NCBI GenBank assembly: GCA_944322945.1
Contig: CALUQN010000010.1
Coordinates: forward strand, 2,230-66,229
Direction of reading: 5' to 3'
Source of the DNA: Candidatus Gastranaerophilales bacterium
GTDB lineage: Bacteria > Cyanobacteriota > Vampirovibrionia > Gastranaerophilales > Gastranaerophilaceae
DNA length: 64,000 bases
The translations under genes were made by a program, and so were the position numbers. Below, piece after piece: positions 4,220-62,245 of this stretch (its first letter is position 1; each line of letters opens with the position of its first letter). The notes beneath the pieces are model-generated. The model searched no databases. It had not been told where the DNA came from and was given only the letters and a program-made list of their open reading frames with translations.

Positions 4220-4279
4220 GCAATTTATATAAAGAACATGTTTTTATTTAAATAAGACACGAAACACAGGTATAAGGTT

Positions 4280-5419
4280 ATGAAAGTATTGTTAAACAGT
4301 TTAGTCAGGCTGGCAAAGACTATGCCTCGCGGACGTTGTGTTCCTGCATCGCGGGAAGGAATTTTTTCTTTTGCAAAAAATCATCAGTTAACCAGAGCTG
4401 ACGGAGCATTAAATGAAAACGGTATGGTGCTGGTTCATTTGACAGATTATCTGCCGAGAAAAGGTTATATAGATACAGCCCGTTCTGCGGTTGGGGCTCC
4501 CCGTGACAGTGTGCATTTTTCTGTTAATCATGCAGTTGAATCTCATCTGCTTGGCGATTGGTCAGAAAAGAAATTAGCCTTTATTCTTCCGATGAAAGCC
4601 GCACGGGCTATTAAAGAAAATAACTTTACCGGCGGTATTGCTGCGGATTTTTATTCTCATGGCAGGGTTAAAATACCGGAAGGCTCTGTTATAGTTCGCC
4701 GTTCTTCAACGATGCAGCCTGGGCGCTACAGAATTTCCGATGCGTCAAAGGTTGATGAATTTAAAGATTTAAAAGGTGTAAAAGTTATTGAGACTGCCGC
4801 TGATGATATCTCTGAGACAACAAATGATGTGTTGAAAAAAATGGGTTATGAGGTAAGGTCTTCAGATACGTTTCACTGGGGAAGTACTTCTGATTTCGAT
4901 GGAATGTTAATGTTCAGTAATTTTTTACGGAAAAATGGTATGAAACCTGCATGGCACGGATATACCCCGAATGCTAAGATTGAAATGATCATGGAAGTGA
5001 TTAATCTATTGGCAAATAAAGCAAACAGATGGCAGTTCCAACATTTTGAATGGGGAAGGGGCGATGTTATTTGGGATGCAAAAGAACTAATGCTGAATGC
5101 TTTAAAATACGTTGACGGGTATGCAAAAAGTTCCAAGCTGCCTATAAATTTTGATATTAAAACTCTTGTAAATATTATTGAAACTTCTAAAAATCCTCAG
5201 GAAGCTGTAAAATTGCTTCAGTCTAGAATGGGTATTTCATCCTACATGATGTCTAAAGAGTATATAGCAGCTCTGACTGATGAGAATGTATTTTCAAGTG
5301 TCAAATTTAACTTTGAGGCTATTGCAGACAGTCCTATTCTTCGAAAAATAGACAAATATGTTGCTAATTTTCTAGAAAACCCATCGGAAAAAACTTTTGA
5401 AGTGTTTTCAAGTCTATAA
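4280..5419 (+). CDS. hypothetical protein
   Basis: 379-aa ORF, 60 nt after and co-oriented with the VWA gene. No recognisable family. Confidence 0.55.
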   Translation: MKVLLNSLVRLAKTMPRGRCVPASREGIFSFAKNHQLTRADGALNENGMVLVHLTDYLPRKGYIDTARSAVGAPRDSVHFSVNHAVESHLLGDWSEKKLAFILPMKAARAIKENNFTGGIAADFYSHGRVKIPEGSVIVRRSSTMQPGRYRISDASKVDEFKDLKGVKVIETAADDISETTNDVLKKMGYEVRSSDTFHWGSTSDFDGMLMFSNFLRKNGMKPAWHGYTPNAKIEMIMEVINLLANKANRWQFQHFEWGRGDVIWDAKELMLNALKYVDGYAKSSKLPINFDIKTLVNIIETSKNPQEAVKLLQSRMGISSYMMSKEYIAALTDENVFSSVKFNFEAIADSPILRKIDKYVANFLENPSEKTFEVFSSL

Positions 5420-5454
5420 CGAATAGAATTTGGTCTATTGGCAATCTAATTTAA

Positions 5455-7239
5455 TTAATTGCAGCCATCGTCGAGGTTATCAATTTTACCGTCGTGGTCA
5501 TTGTCTACCCCGTCAGAGCACGAGCCTATTGAATCGGGGCTTTCTGCGCGGATATCAGTTTTGAGATATTTGTCAGGAATTTTTACCCAGATATAATTAA
5601 AATAGTCTTTGTAAAATTCAGCGAATTTTTTGTCTTCTATCAAGACTATATTTTCGTCATTTCTGTTTTCTCCGCTGTTTGAAAAATTCATTGAGCCGAG
5701 AATTGTGTATTTGTCGTCAATGATTATGGTTTTCATGTGCATTTTGCCGGCGTAATTTTCAGCTTTTACAGGCACTCCGGCAGCGCGCAGTACGTGATGT
5801 TTTGTGTGCAATTGGGTTGAACTTGTTCCGTCCAGTATGATTTTGACATCAACGCCGCGCTTTTTTGCGTTAATCAGAGCATCTGTCAGGCTCTGATGCG
5901 TGAGTACAAATGTCGGTATATAAATATATCTTTCCGCTTTATTTATAAGCGGCAGGATTTCCCTGCTGATAGCCTTGTCCTGCGGAGAGAAAAAGACTGA
6001 CACGGTGGATGTCCCCAGTCTGATGTTTTTGTTATATTTGCTCGGCATCTTGTTGGTGTGGAATTTGCCAGAGAGCATCTGCTCAAATTCTTTTTTGAAA
6101 AGCTCTGCAACGTGCAAAGAATTTATAACAACTATGCTGTTTGCGTTAAATCCGGAAAGCCCTGTTCTGCTGAAATTCATTGAACCTGTCAAAACTTTTT
6201 TCCCGTCAAATATCATAAACTTATTGTGCATAAGATAATTTGTGAGCATTTTGCTCTGTGCATTAAAATCTGTGTTATATTCGTCAGCTAGTGAAATAAT
6301 TTTTTCGCTGTCAGGGTAATGTTTATCCTGCGGGATTTTTGTGTCGGTGACGAGTCGTATTTTTACTCCTCTTTCCTTTGCTTTAGATAACGCATTTTCT
6401 ACAGCGGGAACACTTTCCCAGCCATATACAGCCATATCAATTGTTTGAGTTGTATTGTTTATATCGTTTACTATTGCCTGACAAATGTTACTTATACAGT
6501 TTGTGTCAGGTTTTAGTCTTGTGGTAAAGTCTGTGAGGTAAATTTTTATATCTCCGGCCGCAGTGATTGTCGGAACCGGTTTTAAAATTTCATCTCCTTT
6601 TACGCTTGTGTTTGCCCCGAGACAAACCTTGCACGGTATTGCGTTTGCGGAAAGCTGTCTGCGCGGAATTGTTACTGTGTCACGTGCTGCTTTTGCATAT
6701 TTGCAGTCAGGTGAGTGGTATTTATTGTTTCTGTGGTTTAAAATAACTAGGTCGAGTTTTCTTGCTTTTTCAAGTTGTGTTTTGTAGATTTCCTGATTTT
6801 GAGCAATCCCATTCTTTATCGCAAATCCGTTTTGGTATAAAAGCTGCCCGTAATCGTTACCGTTTACTGTTATATTGGCATAGCGGCATAAGGGTGTGCT
6901 TTCGGCTGTAAATTTTACTTTTATTTCTTTATCCAGCAGTGTTTTTGCTGCAAAATCTTCTGCCAGATAGCCAAGTCCGACAATCTCTTTTGCTGTCAGT
7001 TTGTTTTTAAATGCAATGTCAGCAGTGTCGGCTTTTATATCAGAGGTATAGCTGGTATATTCCGGCAGACAGATTGTTTCATTATCATCAACACGTCTGT
7101 TCCCGTTCAAGTCAACTTGTATCATTGAAGGATTTAGTATTTTTAAGACAACATTTGTATTTTGTCTGAAGTGTTCTTCCAGAGTGAATAACCCGAATAA
7201 TATGATTATAAATATGAAAGTTGTGAGTTTTTTATTCAT
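5455..7239 (-). CDS. secreted multidomain phospholipase D-family protein (SNase-like + Ada-type Zn motif + 2x HKD)
   Basis: Signal peptide present. Thermonuclease-like GLGYLAEDFAAKTL...NGNDYGQLLYQNGFA. YHSPDCKYAK...CKVC Cys motif. Two HKD motifs (HNKFMIFDGKKVLTGSMNFS, HMKTIIIDDKYTILGSMNFSNSG). C-terminal CSDGVDNDHDGKIDNLDDGC. Confidence 0.8.
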   Translation of the reverse strand: MNKKLTTFIFIIILFGLFTLEEHFRQNTNVVLKILNPSMIQVDLNGNRRVDDNETICLPEYTSYTSDIKADTADIAFKNKLTAKEIVGLGYLAEDFAAKTLLDKEIKVKFTAESTPLCRYANITVNGNDYGQLLYQNGFAIKNGIAQNQEIYKTQLEKARKLDLVILNHRNNKYHSPDCKYAKAARDTVTIPRRQLSANAIPCKVCLGANTSVKGDEILKPVPTITAAGDIKIYLTDFTTRLKPDTNCISNICQAIVNDINNTTQTIDMAVYGWESVPAVENALSKAKERGVKIRLVTDTKIPQDKHYPDSEKIISLADEYNTDFNAQSKMLTNYLMHNKFMIFDGKKVLTGSMNFSRTGLSGFNANSIVVINSLHVAELFKKEFEQMLSGKFHTNKMPSKYNKNIRLGTSTVSVFFSPQDKAISREILPLINKAERYIYIPTFVLTHQSLTDALINAKKRGVDVKIILDGTSSTQLHTKHHVLRAAGVPVKAENYAGKMHMKTIIIDDKYTILGSMNFSNSGENRNDENIVLIEDKKFAEFYKDYFNYIWVKIPDKYLKTDIRAESPDSIGSCSDGVDNDHDGKIDNLDDGCN

Positions 7240-8367: not shown

Positions 8368-9141
8368 CTAGTCTGCAAGTTTTGTGATTAATATTGGTGC
8401 ATTGGTGTAAAAGTACGGCAGGGAATTCCCTGCATCGGTGTATCCTACCCAGATTACTCCTGGATAGCTTTGTTTGTTTATCTGTCGTAATTTTTCTTCT
8501 ACATTTGTAAATTTTGTTTTTGAAATTTTTAGGTTCGCAAGATTACTGATGTCACCGATATTTATTATCGTATAGTCTCCGTTTGTTATTCTGTGGTAAT
8601 TTGTTGCTTCTTCAATCGCTTTGTACACCCATTTTATCCTTCCGTTTCGTTTAAGGTTCGCCGGAATTTCCATTGTGTAAATTCCTATTTCTTTTGCGTG
8701 TTCTACAAGCGCATTGATTACTTTTTTGCCCTCATTTTTGTTATCTACTGTCAGGATTAGTCCAGATTTTAGCTTGTCTCCGTAAATGTATTTTTCATCG
8801 CCTTCCATGGCTGCTCTTATCGGGTAAAGTACTTTTTTCTTTAAAAACTTTGCAGTGTTTGGATATTTAAGCTTATTCAGCCCGGCATTTTTGTCGGCAA
8901 GTTCTATAAGGCTTTCAGGAATAATGTTTTTCATCCTCAGATTAAGAAGCATTCCGGCAACTGCTGCCACCGCAAGCAGACTTACAGTGATTCCGAGCGA
9001 ATTATTGTTCATTTCTTTCATTTTTTTTGTCGGATCTGTTTGAAACAAAAAAGGATTGCTAATCTCGACTTTTTTTTCACCTGTCTGAGAATTGCAGAAA
9101 CTTGTTGTGTATGTTTTGTAGGATACCGGACTAACTTGCAT
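8368..9141 (-). CDS. membrane-anchored hypothetical protein, possible degenerate AAA+ core
   Basis: 257 aa. TM helix LGITVSLLAVAAVAGMLLNL. KSGLILTVDNKNEGKKVINALVEHAKEIG and DYTIINIGDISNL align loosely to FtsH-type Walker A/B regions, with key residues replaced. Confidence 0.55.
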   Translation of the reverse strand: MQVSPVSYKTYTTSFCNSQTGEKKVEISNPFLFQTDPTKKMKEMNNNSLGITVSLLAVAAVAGMLLNLRMKNIIPESLIELADKNAGLNKLKYPNTAKFLKKKVLYPIRAAMEGDEKYIYGDKLKSGLILTVDNKNEGKKVINALVEHAKEIGIYTMEIPANLKRNGRIKWVYKAIEEATNYHRITNGDYTIINIGDISNLANLKISKTKFTNVEEKLRQINKQSYPGVIWVGYTDAGNSLPYFYTNAPILITKLAD

Positions 9142-9180
9142 GATATGGTATTAAACCGTAAAATAATATATTTTTGCTAA

Positions 9181-9198
9181 ATTGTAAACTTTTGTATA
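9181..9198 (-). promoter_or_regulatory. HLR1-like direct repeat (1 mismatch)
   Basis: Minus strand reads TATACAAA-AG-TTTACAAT against the consensus (G/T)TTACA(T/A)(T/A)-N2-(G/T)TTACA(T/A)(T/A). Located between the divergent genes 8368..9141 and dfx. Confidence 0.4.
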
Positions 9199-9281
9199 GA
9201 AATATTCCACCCTGATGTTCGTCCGCAGGGTAATGTTTTTTCTGAATAAAGGGAATATTTTGTTTATGAAAGGAGTGAAAA

Positions 9282-9677
9282 ATGACGAAAAAATTAGAAT
9301 TATACCGATGTAATATATGCGGCAATCTTGCAGAAGTAATCATTCCGGGCGCGGGAGAACTCGTCTGCTGCGGTGAGTCGATGGAACTTTTAGAGGCGAA
9401 AAATAATGATGCTGAAGCAAACGAAAAACACGTACCTGTTTTTATGAAAGATGAACAGGGAAAAAATGAAGTCAGAGTGGGTAGTACTCTGCATCCTATG
9501 GAAGAAAACCATTATATTATGTTTATAGAAACAATTACTCCTGATTACAACAGAGCCGAATTGCAGTATTTGCATCCCGGAGAGGAAGCTAAAATGCTAA
9601 TCGGCGAAAAGCTCGGCAAGGAACTTGCCAGAGAGTTTTGTAGTATTCACGGGTTATGGGAGGGCAAAAGTGATTAG
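9282..9677 (+). CDS. dfx: desulfoferrodoxin (2Fe superoxide reductase)
   Basis: N-terminal desulforedoxin CxxC...CC (YRCNICGN...ELVCCGESM). EKHVPV and the SOR domain. RBS AAAGGAG. Confidence 0.9.
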   Translation: MTKKLELYRCNICGNLAEVIIPGAGELVCCGESMELLEAKNNDAEANEKHVPVFMKDEQGKNEVRVGSTLHPMEENHYIMFIETITPDYNRAELQYLHPGEEAKMLIGEKLGKELAREFCSIHGLWEGKSD

Positions 9678-10179
9678 TGATAAAGTCAGAAATATCCTTA
9701 ACGAACAGATTAACAAAGAATTTTATTCCGCTTATTTGTATCTTGCTATGTCTGCTTATTTTGACGAAATTGGTCTTTACGGTTTTTCTAACTGGACTAA
9801 AGTGCAGGCTCGGGAAGAAGTTGACCACGGGATGATTCTTTTTGATTATTTGATTGACAGGAATACGAAAGTCGAACTTATGAGTATAGACACGCCGGAT
9901 TCAGAATTTACAAGCCCTATGCAGGTTTTTGAGAAAATACTTTCTCATGAAATTTCTGTTACTGAAAGTATAAACAGAGTTGCCGCGCTTTCTGACGATG
10001 AATGTGATTTGGCGACAAGAAATTTCATAAACTGGTATATAGCAGAACAAGTCGAGGAGGAAGCTGCGGTTAGGGATGTTATCACAAAATTAGGTATGTT
10101 TGGAGACGAAAAAGCTTCATTATACCTGTTAGACAGAGAGTTTAAAGAACGTGATTACCGCGCTCATTCTTATAAGTAA
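9670..10179 (+). CDS. ferritin (non-haem)
   Basis: ISDKVRNILNEQINKEFYSAYLYLAMSAYF...REEVDHG ferroxidase-centre pattern. A GTG start at 9670 overlapping the dfx stop by 8 nt gives a canonical N-terminus. Confidence 0.85.
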   Translation: MISDKVRNILNEQINKEFYSAYLYLAMSAYFDEIGLYGFSNWTKVQAREEVDHGMILFDYLIDRNTKVELMSIDTPDSEFTSPMQVFEKILSHEISVTESINRVAALSDDECDLATRNFINWYIAEQVEEEAAVRDVITKLGMFGDEKASLYLLDREFKERDYRAHSYK

Positions 10180-10207: not shown

Positions 10208-10234
10208 AAGACGTCTTTTGACGTCTTTTTTTTT
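10208..10234 (+). terminator. rho-independent terminator after the ferritin gene
   Basis: AAGACGTC-TTTT-GACGTCTT stem-loop followed by a T-run. Confidence 0.75.
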
Positions 10235-10306
10235 ATTCAAAAATAGCTAATATTGCGATTTTGTAATCAATTTGTCCGTTTTTTCAAAATATTTTATTAT
10301 ATAAGT

Positions 10307-11917
10307 ATGCAAAAAGGGAAAATAGTCGTAGTTGATGATGAAAAAATGGTTACCTCAGCTTTCAAAACACTTTTAAAAGTAGAGGGCTTTACTGACGCTG
10401 CGTTTTTTAATAACCCTAAAGATGCTGTTGAATATTTAAAATCTGAAAATCCCGATTTGATAATATCTGATTTTATGATGCCGGAAATGAACGGTCTTGA
10501 ATTTTTGACTGAAGCCAAAAAACTTCATCCGGAAACAAGCATGATACTATTGACAGGCTATGCCGATAAAGAAAATGCAATCCGTGCTATAAATGAGGTC
10601 GGACTTTACAAATACATAGAAAAACCATGGGATAACGACGACTTGTTGATGAATATCAAAAACGGTATTGAACGCAGCCATCTGTTATCTGATTTGCGAA
10701 ATACTATTGCGGAACTTGAAGATGCTAAGAACAAGCTTCAGGCTTATTCTGAAAATCTTGAAGCTCTTGTTGCCGAGCGTACAAAAGAATTAACCGAAGC
10801 AAACGCAAAATTGAGCGGAATTGTCAACTACTGCGCAGACGGAATTATTATTATTGATAAGACAGGCGGCATTATACAGGTCAATCCGGCTTGCGAAAAC
10901 CTTATCGGTATGTCGCAAAAATCCCTTGCAAAAATGAAGTTTCAGGAGATAGCATATTCTCACAAACCAGAGATGAATTCTTCCGCTAATAACCAAAACG
11001 GCGGAATATTCGGGCTTAACGCAGATAAAAGTGAAGTTATACTTAGAGATTATTTTATTGTGAATAAGCTGAGCAAAGAACATGTACCGGTAGAAATTAG
11101 TTTTGCTGCTATATCTGCTGAAAACTCACTGCCTGAAAGATATGTCGGCGTTATACGTGATGTTAGCGTACAAAAAGAGACTGAAAAACTTCGAGATGAT
11201 TTTATAGCTACATTGACACATGACTTGCGCACACCTCTTCTTGCAGCTATCCAGACTTTGAAATTTTTCCTGGAAGGCGCACTGGGCGAACTATCAGAAA
11301 AACAAACAGTTTTACTGACGACAATGCTTGGCAGTAATGAAGATTTGCTCGGGCTTGTGAATGCTCTGCTTGAGGTTTACAGGTTTGACAGCGGAAAGTT
11401 AGAGCTGTGCAAAACGTCTTTTAATTTTAAAAATCTCGTCGAACAGTGTTATGAAGAAATAAAGCCGCTTGCACAGAAAAAGGATATAGATTTTATCCTT
11501 AATTGTGAAATTCCTGATAATAGTGAAATTTACGCGGACAAAGCTGAACTCAAACGAGTTATCATCAATCTTTGCGGCAATGCCGTAAATTACACAAATA
11601 AAGGCGGAAAAATTGAAATTCTTACAAAAATTCAATCCGGTGATCTGATTTTTTCAGTAACAGACAATGGCAACGGAATTCCAAAAGAGGATTTGCCGCT
11701 GTTATTCAAAAGATTTTCACAGGGGACAAGCCGCAAACGTTCGACAGGTACAGGATTGGGACTTTATCTTTCCCGTCAGATTATAGAAGCTCACGGCGGT
11801 AAAATCTGGGCAGAAAGCAAACTGGATAAGGGCAGTGAATTTTCTTTCCTCTTAACCGGGGTTGAAGATATAAAAAATGGCAGAAATTTAACAGAAAGGC
11901 AGAAAGTAAATGGTTAG
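10307..11917 (+). CDS. hybrid sensor: receiver + coiled coil + PAS + HisKA/HATPase histidine kinase
   Basis: REC (VVVDDE...IISDFMMPEMNG). PAS-like region. H-box FIATLTHDLRTPL. G-boxes DNGNGI and GTGLGL. ATG at 10307 chosen. Confidence 0.85.
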   Translation: MQKGKIVVVDDEKMVTSAFKTLLKVEGFTDAAFFNNPKDAVEYLKSENPDLIISDFMMPEMNGLEFLTEAKKLHPETSMILLTGYADKENAIRAINEVGLYKYIEKPWDNDDLLMNIKNGIERSHLLSDLRNTIAELEDAKNKLQAYSENLEALVAERTKELTEANAKLSGIVNYCADGIIIIDKTGGIIQVNPACENLIGMSQKSLAKMKFQEIAYSHKPEMNSSANNQNGGIFGLNADKSEVILRDYFIVNKLSKEHVPVEISFAAISAENSLPERYVGVIRDVSVQKETEKLRDDFIATLTHDLRTPLLAAIQTLKFFLEGALGELSEKQTVLLTTMLGSNEDLLGLVNALLEVYRFDSGKLELCKTSFNFKNLVEQCYEEIKPLAQKKDIDFILNCEIPDNSEIYADKAELKRVIINLCGNAVNYTNKGGKIEILTKIQSGDLIFSVTDNGNGIPKEDLPLLFKRFSQGTSRKRSTGTGLGLYLSRQIIEAHGGKIWAESKLDKGSEFSFLLTGVEDIKNGRNLTERQKVNG

Positions 11918-12575
11918 GGTGTTAATTGTTGAAGATCACGATATGGCAAGAATGGGGCTTTCCGTGATACTCGGAAGTAACGCTAATATAGAAATTGCAG
12001 ATATGTCATCTGACGGTCAGGACGGTGTAAACAAGGCACTGGAGCTGGAACCTGATGTTGTTATTATGGATATCGGGCTTCCGACTATAGACGGTATTGA
12101 GGCAACCCGAAAAATCAAGTCTGCAAACCCTAAAATAAAAGTTTTGATGTATACATCAAGAGAATCCGAAGATGATATATTTGATTCTTTTCAAGCAGGT
12201 GCTGACGGATATATTACAAAAGGTGCAACTGCAGAACAAACTGTTTCGGCTGTGCTTGCTGTGGGCGAGGGGGTAGCTTGGCTTGATCCTGCTATTGCAA
12301 AGGTTGTTTTAACAAATATTCGCCGTTCAACTGAAACTCAAACACGCCGCGGTGAGATAAATTATGCACTTGGCAAAAACCTTTACGGTTTAACAGAACG
12401 CGAGATGGAAGTTTTGGCTCTTATTGTTGACGGTCTTTCAAACCCGCAGATCGCGGATAAGCTCGTCATCACGCTTTCTACTACCAAAACACATGTCCAT
12501 AGTATTTTACAAAAATTATATGTGGAAAGTCGCTCAAAAGCTGTTGCCATGGCGATGAAAGAGGGGTTAGTTTAA
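11910..12575 (+). CDS. NarL/LuxR-family response regulator
   Basis: REC (LIVEDHD...VIMDIGLPTIDG) plus a LuxR HTH (LTEREMEVLALIVDGLSNPQIADKL). 8-nt overlap with the kinase gene. Confidence 0.9.
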   Translation: MVRVLIVEDHDMARMGLSVILGSNANIEIADMSSDGQDGVNKALELEPDVVIMDIGLPTIDGIEATRKIKSANPKIKVLMYTSRESEDDIFDSFQAGADGYITKGATAEQTVSAVLAVGEGVAWLDPAIAKVVLTNIRRSTETQTRRGEINYALGKNLYGLTEREMEVLALIVDGLSNPQIADKLVITLSTTKTHVHSILQKLYVESRSKAVAMAMKEGLV

Positions 12576-14883: not shown

Positions 14884-14901
14884 GTTACATTTGTTTACAA
14901 A
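14884..14901 (+). promoter_or_regulatory. perfect HLR1 (RpaB-type) direct repeat
   Basis: GTTACATT-TG-TTTACAAA matches the consensus with no mismatch. Located in a divergent intergenic region. Confidence 0.6.
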
Positions 14902-21318: not shown

Positions 21319-22323
21319 TTATATTTTGTAATATTTCAGTGTCTGATTAATTTCTTTCGGCGGTACCGTTGAGACTACACGTGCCACTGTACGAGCTTTG
21401 CCTGAGTCAAGATAATTGAAGCCGTATGGTGTTGTTACTTTTGCACGAAGTGCATATTTTACCGCATCATTTACAGGCAGCGTTTCGTTTAACTCCGTAA
21501 TTAGTCTATACATTGGCTGCGAGTAAACTTTATTGCCTATGCTGTTTTTAAAAACTGACGCCTTCAATATTTTTGCCGCTTCTTCTGCTGATACTTTTCT
21601 TGTCTCCATGCTGATGAAACCATCATTAAACATTGCTTCACTCAGCTTGTCGTTTCCTTGCCAATCCGTTAATATTGATGCGTTTTTGATTGTTTTTACT
21701 GTGTCGATATCGTATCCGTCATAAAGTTTGTTTACAATGAGTTTTCTTGCAAGAGGAGAAAATACATTTTTCCCGTAATATTTTAATTCAGAGGCTTGTC
21801 TGATCTCTTCTTCCGGAATATCTATTTCTGTTCTTCTTAGTTCCGGATATTTTTCGTCAATGTCAACATCCGGTGCGTAATTTATATCAACAAGCGGAGA
21901 ATCCAAATCTCTCGGCGCTATATCTGTATCAGGCATAAACCATTTGTTTTCGGAAAAAGTGTACCCTTTTGCTCTGTAAAATTTTCTGTCAACGGGATTG
22001 TAAAATTGTGTAACAATTGGTTCTAAGTCATCTTCATCGTAGCTGTCATATCCGCTCAAATCGTGTTCAAGAGAAATGTCAAAAAGTTCGTCGTCGCGGA
22101 AAATAGCTCTGCGGGCAGCGACGTCTTCCGGTGTTTCCTGCCTGAAATACGGCTTTTTCTTCTCGATGTATAATACGTCTTTTAACACAAACGGTATCGG
22201 ACAATTTTCATAATTCTGTTCATAGACATCCCTGTTTGCTGTTGTTTGTGTTTTAGGCTTTTTCGTTGAAGTGAAATAAGCTCTTTGGACAGGGCTGGTA
22301 TTTGTTATACGTTGAATTTGCAT
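21319..22323 (-). CDS. hypothetical protein
   Basis: 334-aa ORF. N-terminus MQIQRITNTSPVQRAYF. No recognised domain. Confidence 0.6.
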   Translation of the reverse strand: MQIQRITNTSPVQRAYFTSTKKPKTQTTANRDVYEQNYENCPIPFVLKDVLYIEKKKPYFRQETPEDVAARRAIFRDDELFDISLEHDLSGYDSYDEDDLEPIVTQFYNPVDRKFYRAKGYTFSENKWFMPDTDIAPRDLDSPLVDINYAPDVDIDEKYPELRRTEIDIPEEEIRQASELKYYGKNVFSPLARKLIVNKLYDGYDIDTVKTIKNASILTDWQGNDKLSEAMFNDGFISMETRKVSAEEAAKILKASVFKNSIGNKVYSQPMYRLITELNETLPVNDAVKYALRAKVTTPYGFNYLDSGKARTVARVVSTVPPKEINQTLKYYKI

Positions 22324-25237: not shown

Positions 25238-26785
25238 CTATAATGTAACTTTTTGTAACGACAAGAGCCGCTTGTTTTCCTCAATTAAAAACTCTTTGCC
25301 GGGTTTTATTTCAATAAAATCCCATGGGAGCGCTGCGTCAAATTCATAGTTGCTTAAAGCAAAAAAGTCTGCGTCTATGGTGTCCTTGGCACAAGATTTG
25401 AACGCCCCGATTTTGCCGCCTTTTTGGTAAACATCAATCAAAAAATCCGTGAGACTCTCGTCTCCGCGGGAGAGTACTGCCTGCCAATAATCCCATTTAA
25501 TGCTTGAAAAGTGTGCAGTAATACCAAGTTTGTGAAATTCTTTTTTCAGAAAGTTAACTTTATTTTCCAGACTTTTTGTTTGCTCTCTTCCGCACCACTG
25601 AAACGGGGTGTTTGCTTTTGGTACAAAACTGGAAAATCCAAATGATATATCAAACCCTTTATTCTCTTCCTTTAGTCGTTTGGCAAGCCGTAAAAGTTCT
25701 TCCAAGTCTTCATCGCATTCTGTCGGCAGCCCCAGCATACCATAGAATTTGACTCCTTTCAGCCCGTTTTCTCTACAAATTTTAACAGCTTCAAAAATTT
25801 GTTCTTCTGTTACATTTTTGTTTATAACCTTGCGCAGACGTTCACTGCCTGCTTCTATTGCAAGAGTTGTATTTTTTTGTCCTGCTGTTACAAGTGTTTT
25901 TATTATATCCGGCTTTACCGCGTCAATTCTAAGGGAAGAGAGGCTCATCTCAATTTTTTCACCGTTTTGTATTTTTTTGTAAATATATTCGCATATATCT
26001 CCAAAGTGAGGATGCGCACTGATTTGAGCGCCTAAAAGTGCTATTTTATTTGTTTTTGACAGTCCCAGTTCTATTACCTTAATAAGTTCGTCATAGGGCA
26101 TAAATCTGAGCGGCAGGTTTAAATAAGAAGCAAGGCAGAAACCGCAGCGGTTTGCGCAGCCTCTTGCAACTTCCACTATAAATGTGTTCTTGAAAAATGC
26201 GTCTTCGCTCAATATCGGAGTATATATACATTCTGTGAGCTTTTTTGTAAGTTTTTTTACTGACTTTTGCGGCTTGGAAGGTACATATATCCCGTCGACT
26301 TTTGAGAGCATTTCAAGAATTTCATTACGTGATTTATCTTTATTATCCTTACAAATTCTTGCTGCTTCAAGGTTTACGTCTTCTCCGTCCCCAATAACGA
26401 TAAAGTCAAAAAAGTTTTTGTACGGTTCAGGGTTTGCGCTCACTACAGGACCTCCGGCAAATATCAGCGGGCAATCCTCTTCTCTTTCGGTTGATTTCAG
26501 CGGAATTTTATATTTGTCAAGCATTGAAAATATCGTCAGAAAATCCATATCAAACGAAAAAGAAAATCCGATTACATCAACATCTTTGAATGAGTGCATT
26601 GTGTTTTTGGTGTCTGAAAATATCATTTCCGCATTGATATCACACATTTCATCAATTCCTTTGAATACCCACAAGAAACCGAGTGATGAAAGTGCAAAAG
26701 ATTTCGGACCCGGAAATGCCATCCACAAGGTGAAGTCAGCATTTTTGTCAGTTATTGGATTGTATAGATAGATATCTTTAGTCAT
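25238..26785 (-). CDS. B12-binding-domain radical SAM protein
   Basis: CANRCGFCLASY CxxxCxxC motif. N-terminal Rossmann-like B12-binding-type region (VIGFSFSF...FAGGP...VIGDGE). Confidence 0.85.
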   Translation of the reverse strand: MTKDIYLYNPITDKNADFTLWMAFPGPKSFALSSLGFLWVFKGIDEMCDINAEMIFSDTKNTMHSFKDVDVIGFSFSFDMDFLTIFSMLDKYKIPLKSTEREEDCPLIFAGGPVVSANPEPYKNFFDFIVIGDGEDVNLEAARICKDNKDKSRNEILEMLSKVDGIYVPSKPQKSVKKLTKKLTECIYTPILSEDAFFKNTFIVEVARGCANRCGFCLASYLNLPLRFMPYDELIKVIELGLSKTNKIALLGAQISAHPHFGDICEYIYKKIQNGEKIEMSLSSLRIDAVKPDIIKTLVTAGQKNTTLAIEAGSERLRKVINKNVTEEQIFEAVKICRENGLKGVKFYGMLGLPTECDEDLEELLRLAKRLKEENKGFDISFGFSSFVPKANTPFQWCGREQTKSLENKVNFLKKEFHKLGITAHFSSIKWDYWQAVLSRGDESLTDFLIDVYQKGGKIGAFKSCAKDTIDADFFALSNYEFDAALPWDFIEIKPGKEFLIEENKRLLSLQKVTL

Positions 26786-27923: not shown

Positions 27924-27941
27924 ATTGTAACAAATTGTAAA
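27924..27941 (-). promoter_or_regulatory. perfect HLR1 (RpaB-type) direct repeat
   Basis: Minus strand reads TTTACAAT-TT-GTTACAAT. The site ends 8 nt before a plus-strand TATAAT (27950..27955). Confidence 0.6.
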
Positions 27942-32303: not shown

Positions 32304-32321
32304 TTTACATATTGTTACAAA
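32304..32321 (+). promoter_or_regulatory. perfect HLR1 (RpaB-type) direct repeat
   Basis: TTTACATA-TT-GTTACAAA, 20 nt upstream of a candidate -35. Confidence 0.6.
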
Positions 32322-61492: not shown

Positions 61493-62245
61493 ATGACAGA
61501 AAATGCAGAAATGACTACTACTGAAAATGAAGATCGTCAAAGAATTCTTTTAGCCGATGATGAAGCTTCAATCAGACGTATTCTAGAGACCAGATTAAAA
61601 ATGGCCGGTTATGATGTGTACACAGCTGCTGACGGTGAAGAAGCCGTTAATGCATTTAATAAATATAATCCTGATTTGGTTGTTTTGGATGTTATGATGC
61701 CAAAGATGGACGGTTATGGTGTAACAAGAGAAATCAGACGTACTGCTGATGTTCCGATTATTATCCTGACTGCATTGGGTGATGTTTCTGAAAGAATTAC
61801 AGGACTTGAGCTTGGTGCTGACGATTATGTAATTAAACCATTTTCTCCGAAAGAATTAGAAGCTCGTGTCAAGGCTGTATTAAGAAGAACAAATAACAGA
61901 GAAACGATTACACCGAGCGGCAAAGTTACCAAAAATGTAATAACAACAGGTAATATCAAAATTGATACAGCAAGACGTCAGGTATACAGAAAAAATGACA
62001 GAATTCGTTTAACCGGTATGGAATTTAGTCTTTTGGAACTGCTGGTTAATAATTCAGGGCAGGCATTTTCAAGAAACGAAATTCTCCAGCATGTTTGGGC
62101 TTATCCGCCTGATCACAGAATTGATACGCGTGTTGTTGACGTTCACATTTCAAGATTACGTTCAAAATTGGAATCAGACCCGGCAAATCCTGAATTAATC
62201 TTGACAGCTCGCGGTATTGGATATATGTTCCAGAGAATAAACTAA
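61493..62245 (+). CDS. rpaB: OmpR-family response regulator, RpaB/Ycf27 orthologue
   Basis: DDEASIRRILETRL...TAADGEEA...DLVVLDVMMPKMDGYGV...VPIIILTALGDVSERITGLELGADDYVIKPFSPKELEARV is nearly collinear with cyanobacterial RpaB as I recall it. Confidence 0.8.
   Translation: MTENAEMTTTENEDRQRILLADDEASIRRILETRLKMAGYDVYTAADGEEAVNAFNKYNPDLVVLDVMMPKMDGYGVTREIRRTADVPIIILTALGDVSERITGLELGADDYVIKPFSPKELEARVKAVLRRTNNRETITPSGKVTKNVITTGNIKIDTARRQVYRKNDRIRLTGMEFSLLELLVNNSGQAFSRNEILQHVWAYPPDHRIDTRVVDVHISRLRSKLESDPANPELILTARGIGYMFQRIN

Follow-up and report, generated by a model that had tools for sequence, protein, structure and literature searches.

An HLR1-like direct repeat upstream of the desulfoferrodoxin-ferritin genes, a candidate RpaB operator in a non-photosynthetic Gastranaerophilales genome

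The direct repeat at positions 9181-9198 (minus strand) of the window, that is, of the whole stretch of 64,000 nucleotides analyzed here, is most likely a functional, genus-specific operator of the response regulator RpaB (probability about 0.6-0.7), and the HLR1 motif that it resembles is clearly in use in this genome and lineage. The host is a Candidatus Gastranaerophilales metagenome-assembled genome (MAG) from the non-photosynthetic gut sister lineage of the cyanobacteria. In cyanobacteria and plastids, RpaB is an essential regulator at the centre of acclimation to light and redox conditions. The HLR1 sites upstream of the desulfoferrodoxin (dfx) and reverse rubrerythrin (rbr) genes give a concrete target that would tie it to oxygen defence in a gut strict anaerobe, and they bear on its role before or without photosynthesis. 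Homologues of RpaA, RpaB, and NblS have been reported in Melainabacteria, where they 'may have another function' (Di Rienzi et al. 2013, PMC3787301), and a full-text literature search found no paper describing HLR1 sites in the Gastranaerophilales/Melainabacteria lineage. The RpaB/HLR1 regulon of the non-photosynthetic Melainabacteria is a more interesting result than the dfx site alone.

The dfx gene (9282-9677, plus strand) encodes a desulfoferrodoxin-type (2Fe) superoxide reductase of 131 aa, which matched PF06397 (58.6 bits, cut-off 23) and PF01880 (54.9 bits, cut-off 22.2) and scored 130.9 against the TIGR00320 equivalog, short of the cut-off of 146.9. Its translation shows CNIC...CC (CxxC...CC) and an H/H/H/C-x2-H ligand pattern, and it has both parts that define a desulfoferrodoxin, an N-terminal desulforedoxin-like FeS4 domain and a C-terminal neelaredoxin-type Fe(His)4Cys domain. 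Among public genomes, the nearest dfx loci are those of Candidatus Gastranaerophilales/Melainabacteria MAGs. The next gene encodes a non-haem ferritin with a ferritin-like four-helix domain (9670-10179, plus strand; PF00210, 2e-39, 135 bits; NF007638 equivalog 102, below the cut-off of 178). The longest ORF call for ferritin spans 9625-10179; GGAAGG precedes a GTG at 9670, which is the likely start and would overlap the dfx stop codon TAG (9675-9677), with translational coupling of the two genes. An intrinsic-terminator-like hairpin with a T run (10208-10237, plus strand) marks the 3' end of the unit, and dfx and ferritin were therefore taken as bicistronic. The domain matches and this hairpin bear out the desulfoferrodoxin-ferritin operon named in the preliminary description, and the ORF list agrees with its placement of the repeat within the 140 bp that separate the start codons of dfx (9282) and of a divergent gene (9141). 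The latter gene (8368-9141, minus strand), an alternative or additional target of the site, encodes a 257-aa membrane protein in which a membrane helix was seen and for which no Pfam or NCBIfam match was found. Downstream of ferritin, a hybrid kinase (REC-PAS-HisKA-HATPase, 10253-11917) and a NarL-type regulator (11910-12575) form a separate unit. At locus L045, from another genus, this kinase (4246-5850) also adjoins dfx, and ferritin is missing there. The kinase beside dfx could be a local redox or oxygen sensor.

The HLR1 element consists of two imperfect 8-nt direct repeats (G/T)TTACA(T/A)(T/A) with 2-nt spacing (Riediger et al. 2019, PMC6525291), and the consensus scored here, (G/T)TTACA(T/A)(T/A)-N2-(G/T)TTACA(T/A)(T/A), was taken from the same work on Synechocystis. 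The window contains six sites with at most one mismatch against 0.43 expected, a number reached by none of 100 shuffles. In the whole assembly (2.12 Mb), 38 sites are perfect and 62 have one mismatch, where Markov models of order 0-4 predict 0.5-0.8 and 14-21, and the enrichment in the genome is about 50-fold. ORFs of at least 80 aa, used for the intergenic call, make up 88% of the genome; 32 of the 38 perfect and 50 of the 62 one-mismatch sites (80-85% intergenic) lie outside them. When intergenic DNA alone was considered, 28, 43, and 131 sites were counted at zero, one, and two mismatches, compared with 0.05, 3.65, and 51 in simulation. The intergenic one-mismatch class thus exceeds expectation about 12-fold (43 vs 3.65), which implies that about 90% of its members are non-random. 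The signal depends on both the spacing and the core of the motif: in a scan of spacers from 0 to 12 nt, the 2-nt spacer gave 38 matches and every other spacer 0-5, and the TTACA core gave 38 matches, compared with at most seven for each of 29 permuted cores. HLR1 was present in all 61 related genomes searched, with 18-29 sites within the same genus and mostly 6-72 within the family, while the reversed pattern and the version with a 3-nt spacer gave 0-8 and 0-7, respectively, in these genomes.

Besides the dfx site, the window carries HLR1 sites at 14884-14901, 21997-22014, 25242-25259, 27924-27941, and 32304-32321. Four of these five are perfect, including those at 14884-14901, 25242-25259, and 27924-27941; four are intergenic or at gene ends, and 21997-22014 falls within a longest ORF call (21319-22323). 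Elsewhere in the genome (G000), some perfect sites form three-repeat arrays with a third, degenerate repeat (TATAAAAATT-like) exactly 10 nt upstream (C27:16799/16809, C27:19037/19047, C34:9151/9161, and C28:8690/8700). A recurring segment of about 100 bp bears two HLR1 sites, TTTACAATTGTTTACAAT and GTTACAAAAGTTTACAGA, 97 nt apart (C2:6212 and 6309; C26:29871 and 29968; C35:86 and 183; C29:47; C34:47); it was seen at the ends of several contigs and ahead of ORFs of very large size (1023 and 1423 aa). Ribosomal RNA promoters were suspected behind this segment and rejected, as a search nearby gave no rRNA or tRNA. Two near-identical promoter-like copies, 228 bp apart, were seen at C6:73323 and 73551, with the arrangement TTGCTA-17-TACATT and HLR1 over the -10 box. 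No ORF of at least 80 aa was found downstream of them, and their products may be small RNAs or small proteins encoded in tandem, under an arrangement of the repressor type.

The presumed binder is encoded within the window at 61493-62245 (plus strand). This OmpR-family response regulator scored 361.3 bits against the NCBIfam equivalog NF045944 (cut-off 330) and is thus assigned as the RpaB orthologue. Four OmpR-family regulators are present in the genome, and the other three scored 146-210 against the RpaB profile, below the cut-off. For two of them, RpaB was nevertheless the best match (206-210 bits), and the identification of RpaB as the binder is therefore a presumption. For a HAMP-PAS kinase on another contig, the top NCBIfam match was NblS, with a score falling far short of the equivalog threshold.

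A different protein could in principle bind the repeat, either one of the two RpaB-like OmpR paralogues or the NarL-type regulator with its hybrid kinase. The two-component pair adjoins dfx-ferritin here and its kinase is found near dfx in L045, while one of the paralogues (206 bits, C17:39072-39836) is encoded on the same strand as the reverse rubrerythrin gene and just downstream of it. We nonetheless regard this explanation as very improbable. The motif has about 100 copies genome-wide, beyond the need of a local regulator, and one protein alone passes the RpaB equivalog cut-off. The terminator separates dfx-ferritin from the kinase operon, and GerE-type regulators usually target inverted repeats.

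The candidate operator reads ATTGTAAACTTTTGTATA on the plus strand and TATACAAAAGTTTACAAT on the minus strand, i.e., TATACAAA-AG-TTTACAAT. It matches the consensus at 15 of the 16 specified positions. The preliminary description had called it a near-perfect HLR1 whose one deviation is an A in place of T at the second position of the first half-site, and the sequence check found this exact. The first, imperfect half-site TATACAAA and the spacer AG occupy 9189-9198, and the second, perfect half-site TTTACAAT occupies 9181-9188, both on the minus strand. Among the intergenic one-mismatch sites, the dfx site is the only one deviating at position 2, against 0.15 expected by chance, while the mismatches of the others concentrate at T3A/T13A (20), position 17 (11), and C5/C15 (9). 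Since its mismatch is of the rarest kind, the dfx site is individually unproven by statistics alone. Sites with two mismatches tolerate changes at position 2 of the first repeat moderately well (15 observed vs 5.75 expected) and do not tolerate them at position 12 (2 observed vs 5.1 expected), which fits a weaker upstream repeat beside a perfect downstream one.

Conservation appears to decide more than these statistics about the reality of the dfx site. The site occurs in each of the four species of the genus, whose Dfx proteins are 77-84% identical, always in the same orientation and at -101 to -103 from the dfx ATG. Its variants, TATACAAAAGTTTACAAT, ..TTAACAAT, ..TTTACATT, and ..TTTACATA, all keep the position-2 mismatch. 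Fifteen of its 18 columns are invariant in the four species, compared with 59 of 140 in the whole spacer and 22-29% in the flanks, and it is the best-conserved block of the region between dfx and the divergent gene. All ten columns of the first half-site and spacer are invariant. The substitutions are restricted to the second half-site, namely to its two degenerate W positions and to T13A, the commonest tolerated change. An invariant block, TTTTGCTA (TAGCAAAA on the minus strand), adjoins the site at 9172-9179 (8/8 columns, strand unassigned) and is retained in other genera too; it may be the transcript start region of the divergent gene, or a -35 element for dfx.

The preliminary description had proposed looking for the motif upstream of dfx in relatives, and the outcome is divided. 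The site is kept in all four species of the genus, while about 45 other Gastranaerophilales with dfx, including genera with the same gene arrangement, have no site at up to two mismatches there, the exceptions being L045 and L053. In L053, a two-mismatch HLR1-like site was detected upstream of dfx. In L045, where Dfx is 56% identical, the sequence upstream of dfx that resembles HLR1 is a different one, GTTACAATAAGGTACAAA, with unchanged orientation. Exactly 10 nt more separate it from the aligned TGATGT/TAATGT box and from the ATG, and its spacing to the divergent ORF has changed by 29 nt. The same divergent gene pair is found in further genera (L009, L010, L013, and L014), which have a single half-site-like element only, and the distance from TTGCT to GAAATATT is 15-16 nt in them, compared with 25 nt here. 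The 10-nt segment at 9189-9198 is therefore a genus-specific addition that supplied the upstream repeat, being present in this genus and missing from these genera, and it presumably arose by tandem duplication. The absence of the site from about 45 other Gastranaerophilales indicates that the wiring is a recent, genus-level gain and not an ancestral trait.

The same data bear on a reading without any regulator, in which the likeness to HLR1 would be a by-product of AT-rich core promoter elements (TTTACA, TACAAT, and TATACA) belonging to the two divergent genes, and the conservation would reflect promoter constraint and shared ancestry. The half-sites do look like both -35 and -10 boxes, 1748 single half-sites were counted across the genome, and both the absence of the site outside the genus and the single occurrence of its mismatch class are in line with such an origin. 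The second half-site may likewise owe its conservation to a core promoter function for the divergent gene, and not to a regulator. However, the added 10 nt would lie in the spacer of the supposed promoter, yet 10/10 of its columns are invariant next to far more variable flanks. The 10-bp phasing and orientation are exactly those of HLR1, the substitutions track the degeneracy of the motif, and similar sites were gained independently at L045 and rbr. This reading was thus considered quite unlikely.

The position of the site was compared with that of all HLR1 sites of the genome with at most one mismatch, tabulated against the flanking gene starts. At the dfx locus, the repeat runs opposite to dfx and is centred 92.5 nt ahead of the start codon of dfx; it points the same way as the divergent gene, whose ATG is 48.5 nt from the centre. 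Sites reversed relative to a gene show a sharp peak with centres 80-100 nt upstream of the ATG (22 of 59), inside which the dfx site falls, while same-orientation sites show no favoured distance. Downstream of the sites of the reverse class, TAnnnT hexamers are depleted at +19 to +28 and clustered at +29 to +47, and sigma28-type -10 boxes (GCCGAT) occur at about +28, +38-41, and +48-49, i.e., with 10-bp phasing. This clustering places the sites of the reverse class around -52 or -62. In Synechocystis, activating HLR1 sites peak at -51 and repressing ones at -5 (PMC6525291).

A candidate -10 box of the dfx promoter, TAATGT (9231-9236, plus strand), lies 51 nt before the dfx ATG and starts 33 nt past the end of the repeat, within the 29-47 nt zone of -10 boxes of the other sites. 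The element nAATG(T) is the only one upstream of dfx that is conserved family-wide; its AAT is invariant in an alignment of 12 sequences, with one exception in a second alignment of dfx upstream regions. If nAATG(T) is the -10 box, the HLR1 centre would be at about -53.5 here and -63.5 in L045. TAATGT is a poor match to sigma-70 and was not reported by the consensus promoter scan. The hexamer 17 nt upstream of it, CACCCT, bears no resemblance to a -35 box, in keeping with a promoter that depends on an activator. An alternative arrangement, in which the conserved TTGCTA (9174-9179) would be the -35 element, 9197-9202 the -10 element, and the site a repressor-binding element in the spacer, was rated lower, since the 10-nt addition would alter that spacing relative to other genera. 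An AT-rich near-palindrome at 9160-9174 was considered as an operator and rejected for lack of conservation within the genus. When the dfx leader (9200-9290) was folded, a z of -1.3 gave no sign of a structured RNA element.

These distances also bear on the possibility that the repeat is a real RpaB site serving only the divergent gene, through repression or class-II activation, and leaving dfx uncontrolled. The site stands in the orientation of that gene and 39 nt from its ATG, and the perfect half-site at 9181-9188 doubles for it as a -35-like TTTACA (TTTACA-17-TATTTT, minus strand) or as a -10-like TACAAT (followed by AGCAAAAA/TTAGCAAAAA). The perfect site at 25242 is arranged alike (TACATT-ATAGCAAAAA), and genera that lack the second repeat still keep the TAGCAAAA block and one half-site-like element. 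The promoter match is, however, at chance level: the consensus scan of 9000-9400 found two promoters against 1.7 expected, TTTACA-17-TATTTT being one of them. Moreover, same-orientation sites lack a favoured distance, while the reverse class has one that dfx fits, and the L045 site has stayed in helical phase with the -10-like box of dfx (a shift of 10 nt) despite the 29-nt change relative to the divergent ORF. The rubrerythrin locus described below makes a gene of reactive oxygen species (ROS) defence the common factor. Taken together, a role confined to the divergent gene seems unlikely, with some chance still attached to it.

Reverse rubrerythrin (PF21349 and PF02915) is among the targets of the reverse class. 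Its HLR1 site, TTTAAAATTTGTTACATT, has one mismatch, is reversed, and has its centre 91.5 nt from the ATG; the site and its mismatch are conserved in the four species of the genus only. Paralogy of the divergent partner genes at the dfx and rbr loci was considered and rejected, their sequences being unrelated, and the ROS genes are accordingly what the two loci have in common. A PerR/Fur-like 7-1-7 box, TGAGAATAATTCTTA, was found at C17:40618-40632, just upstream of the -35 element of reverse rubrerythrin (TTTACA-17-TATAAT), and is conserved across genera. A similar box, TGACAATAATTCTCA, lies at C1:203882-203896, 59 nt upstream of a Fur-family gene, the only one in the genome; rubrerythrin-like ORFs come after this gene. 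A search of 9142-9281 with the 7-1-7 box derived from the rbr and Fur-family genes detected none at up to three mismatches, and PerR was therefore rejected as an explanation of the conserved block upstream of dfx.

Of the 34 proteins encoded by reverse-class targets, 20 were scanned, and 14 of these had no Pfam domain. Several of the targets are paralogues starting with MG(L/M)AASQARLL, lacking a Pfam domain and encoded behind sigma28-like promoters. Many HLR1 sites lie 5-26 nt upstream of sigma28-type promoters (TAAAGTTT-N11-GCCGATAA-like) and favour positions of about -52 and -62, one helical turn apart (e.g., C4:122795, C1:16381, C19:27507, C4:69416, and C3:109284). This association suggests that RpaB co-controls a FliA-type regulon, possibly of motility or surface filaments.

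Taken as a whole, the observations are probably best explained by a genuine, weakened RpaB operator that acts on dfx-ferritin from an upstream, activator-type position and perhaps also on the divergent gene. The ancestor of the genus would have acquired a second half-site, TATACAAAAG, at 10 bp from a lone, older element resembling a half-site, in the promoter region shared by dfx and the membrane protein gene. Phosphorylated RpaB dimers would bind the two repeats head-to-tail. With its reversed orientation and its centre some 53 nt ahead of the dfx transcription start expected from TAATGT, the site would hold a class-I, activator-type position comparable to the -51 class of Synechocystis, from which RpaB could stimulate transcription of the bicistronic unit from a promoter lacking a good -35 box. 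The same dimer would overlap the probable -10/-35 region of the divergent promoter, with repression of that gene as a possible outcome. Such a dual role, with dfx activated and the divergent gene repressed, is possible; in Synechocystis, a single HLR1 site serves the two divergent isiA/IsrR promoters with opposite sign (PMC6525291). We infer binding, the transcription start site, the sign of regulation, and the input signal at the dfx site from the sequence. Counted against the operator reading is that activation by phosphorylated RpaB would be opposite to the cyanobacterial logic for a stress-induced defence gene. The upstream activator-like position differs from that of the stress-derepressed hli operators, and induction by O2 or H2O2 is thus not implied.

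The earlier proposal that superoxide and iron defence is under RpaB gains from the presence of the regulator, the use of HLR1 across the lineage, the conservation in the genus, the modal geometry, and the rbr parallel, while its scope is narrowed by the recent, genus-only gain of the site. In a broader scenario, which we put forward tentatively and with less than even confidence, the ancient NblS-RpaB-HLR1 circuit would survive here as a general regulon with many sites phased in class-I positions before sigma28-type promoters and lineage-specific genes, and a single genus would have recently wired in dfx-ferritin and rbr through new HLR1 sites made in place, at dfx by a 10-bp addition beside an existing half-site. 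If true, this would be a datable case of regulon expansion, and it would hint at a link of RpaB to oxidative and redox stress that is independent of photosynthesis and possibly older. On the sequence statistics and comparison, the dfx site would also illustrate the assembly of a new operator out of one half-site.

Compared with the sites at 14884 and 27924 of the same genome, the dfx site shares the motif and the presumed regulator; those two are perfect, whereas the dfx site is imperfect. Regulators of the PhoB/OmpR type are winged-helix response regulators that bind as head-to-tail dimers to 10-bp-phased direct repeats at promoters with a weak -35 box. The arrangement here differs from the class-I/II sites of that type in the half-site sequence and in its location approximately one to two helical turns upstream of the -35 region, which it does not replace. 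In Clostridium acetobutylicum, PerR controls dfx and reverse rubrerythrin, and the targets are alike (desulfoferrodoxin, reverse rubrerythrin, and iron storage in a strict anaerobe). In the genome studied here, however, the PerR-like box is found at rbr and the Fur-family gene, not at dfx, where the HLR1-like repeat is the sole recognizable operator. The host also differs from Synechocystis in being non-photosynthetic and anaerobic and in lacking photosystem and hli targets; here the candidate target genes encode an anaerobe-type superoxide reductase and a ferritin, and the site is genus-specific and carries the rare T2A in its first half-site. The RpaB targets of Synechocystis do include genes of redox and oxidative stress, such as the Bcp peroxiredoxin and ferredoxins (PMC6525291). 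The HLR1/RpaB system of Synechocystis has the same repeat architecture and an orthologous regulator, and in both organisms sites occur in both orientations; the upstream class near -51 and the promoter-overlapping class of Synechocystis (PMC6525291) would have their counterparts here.
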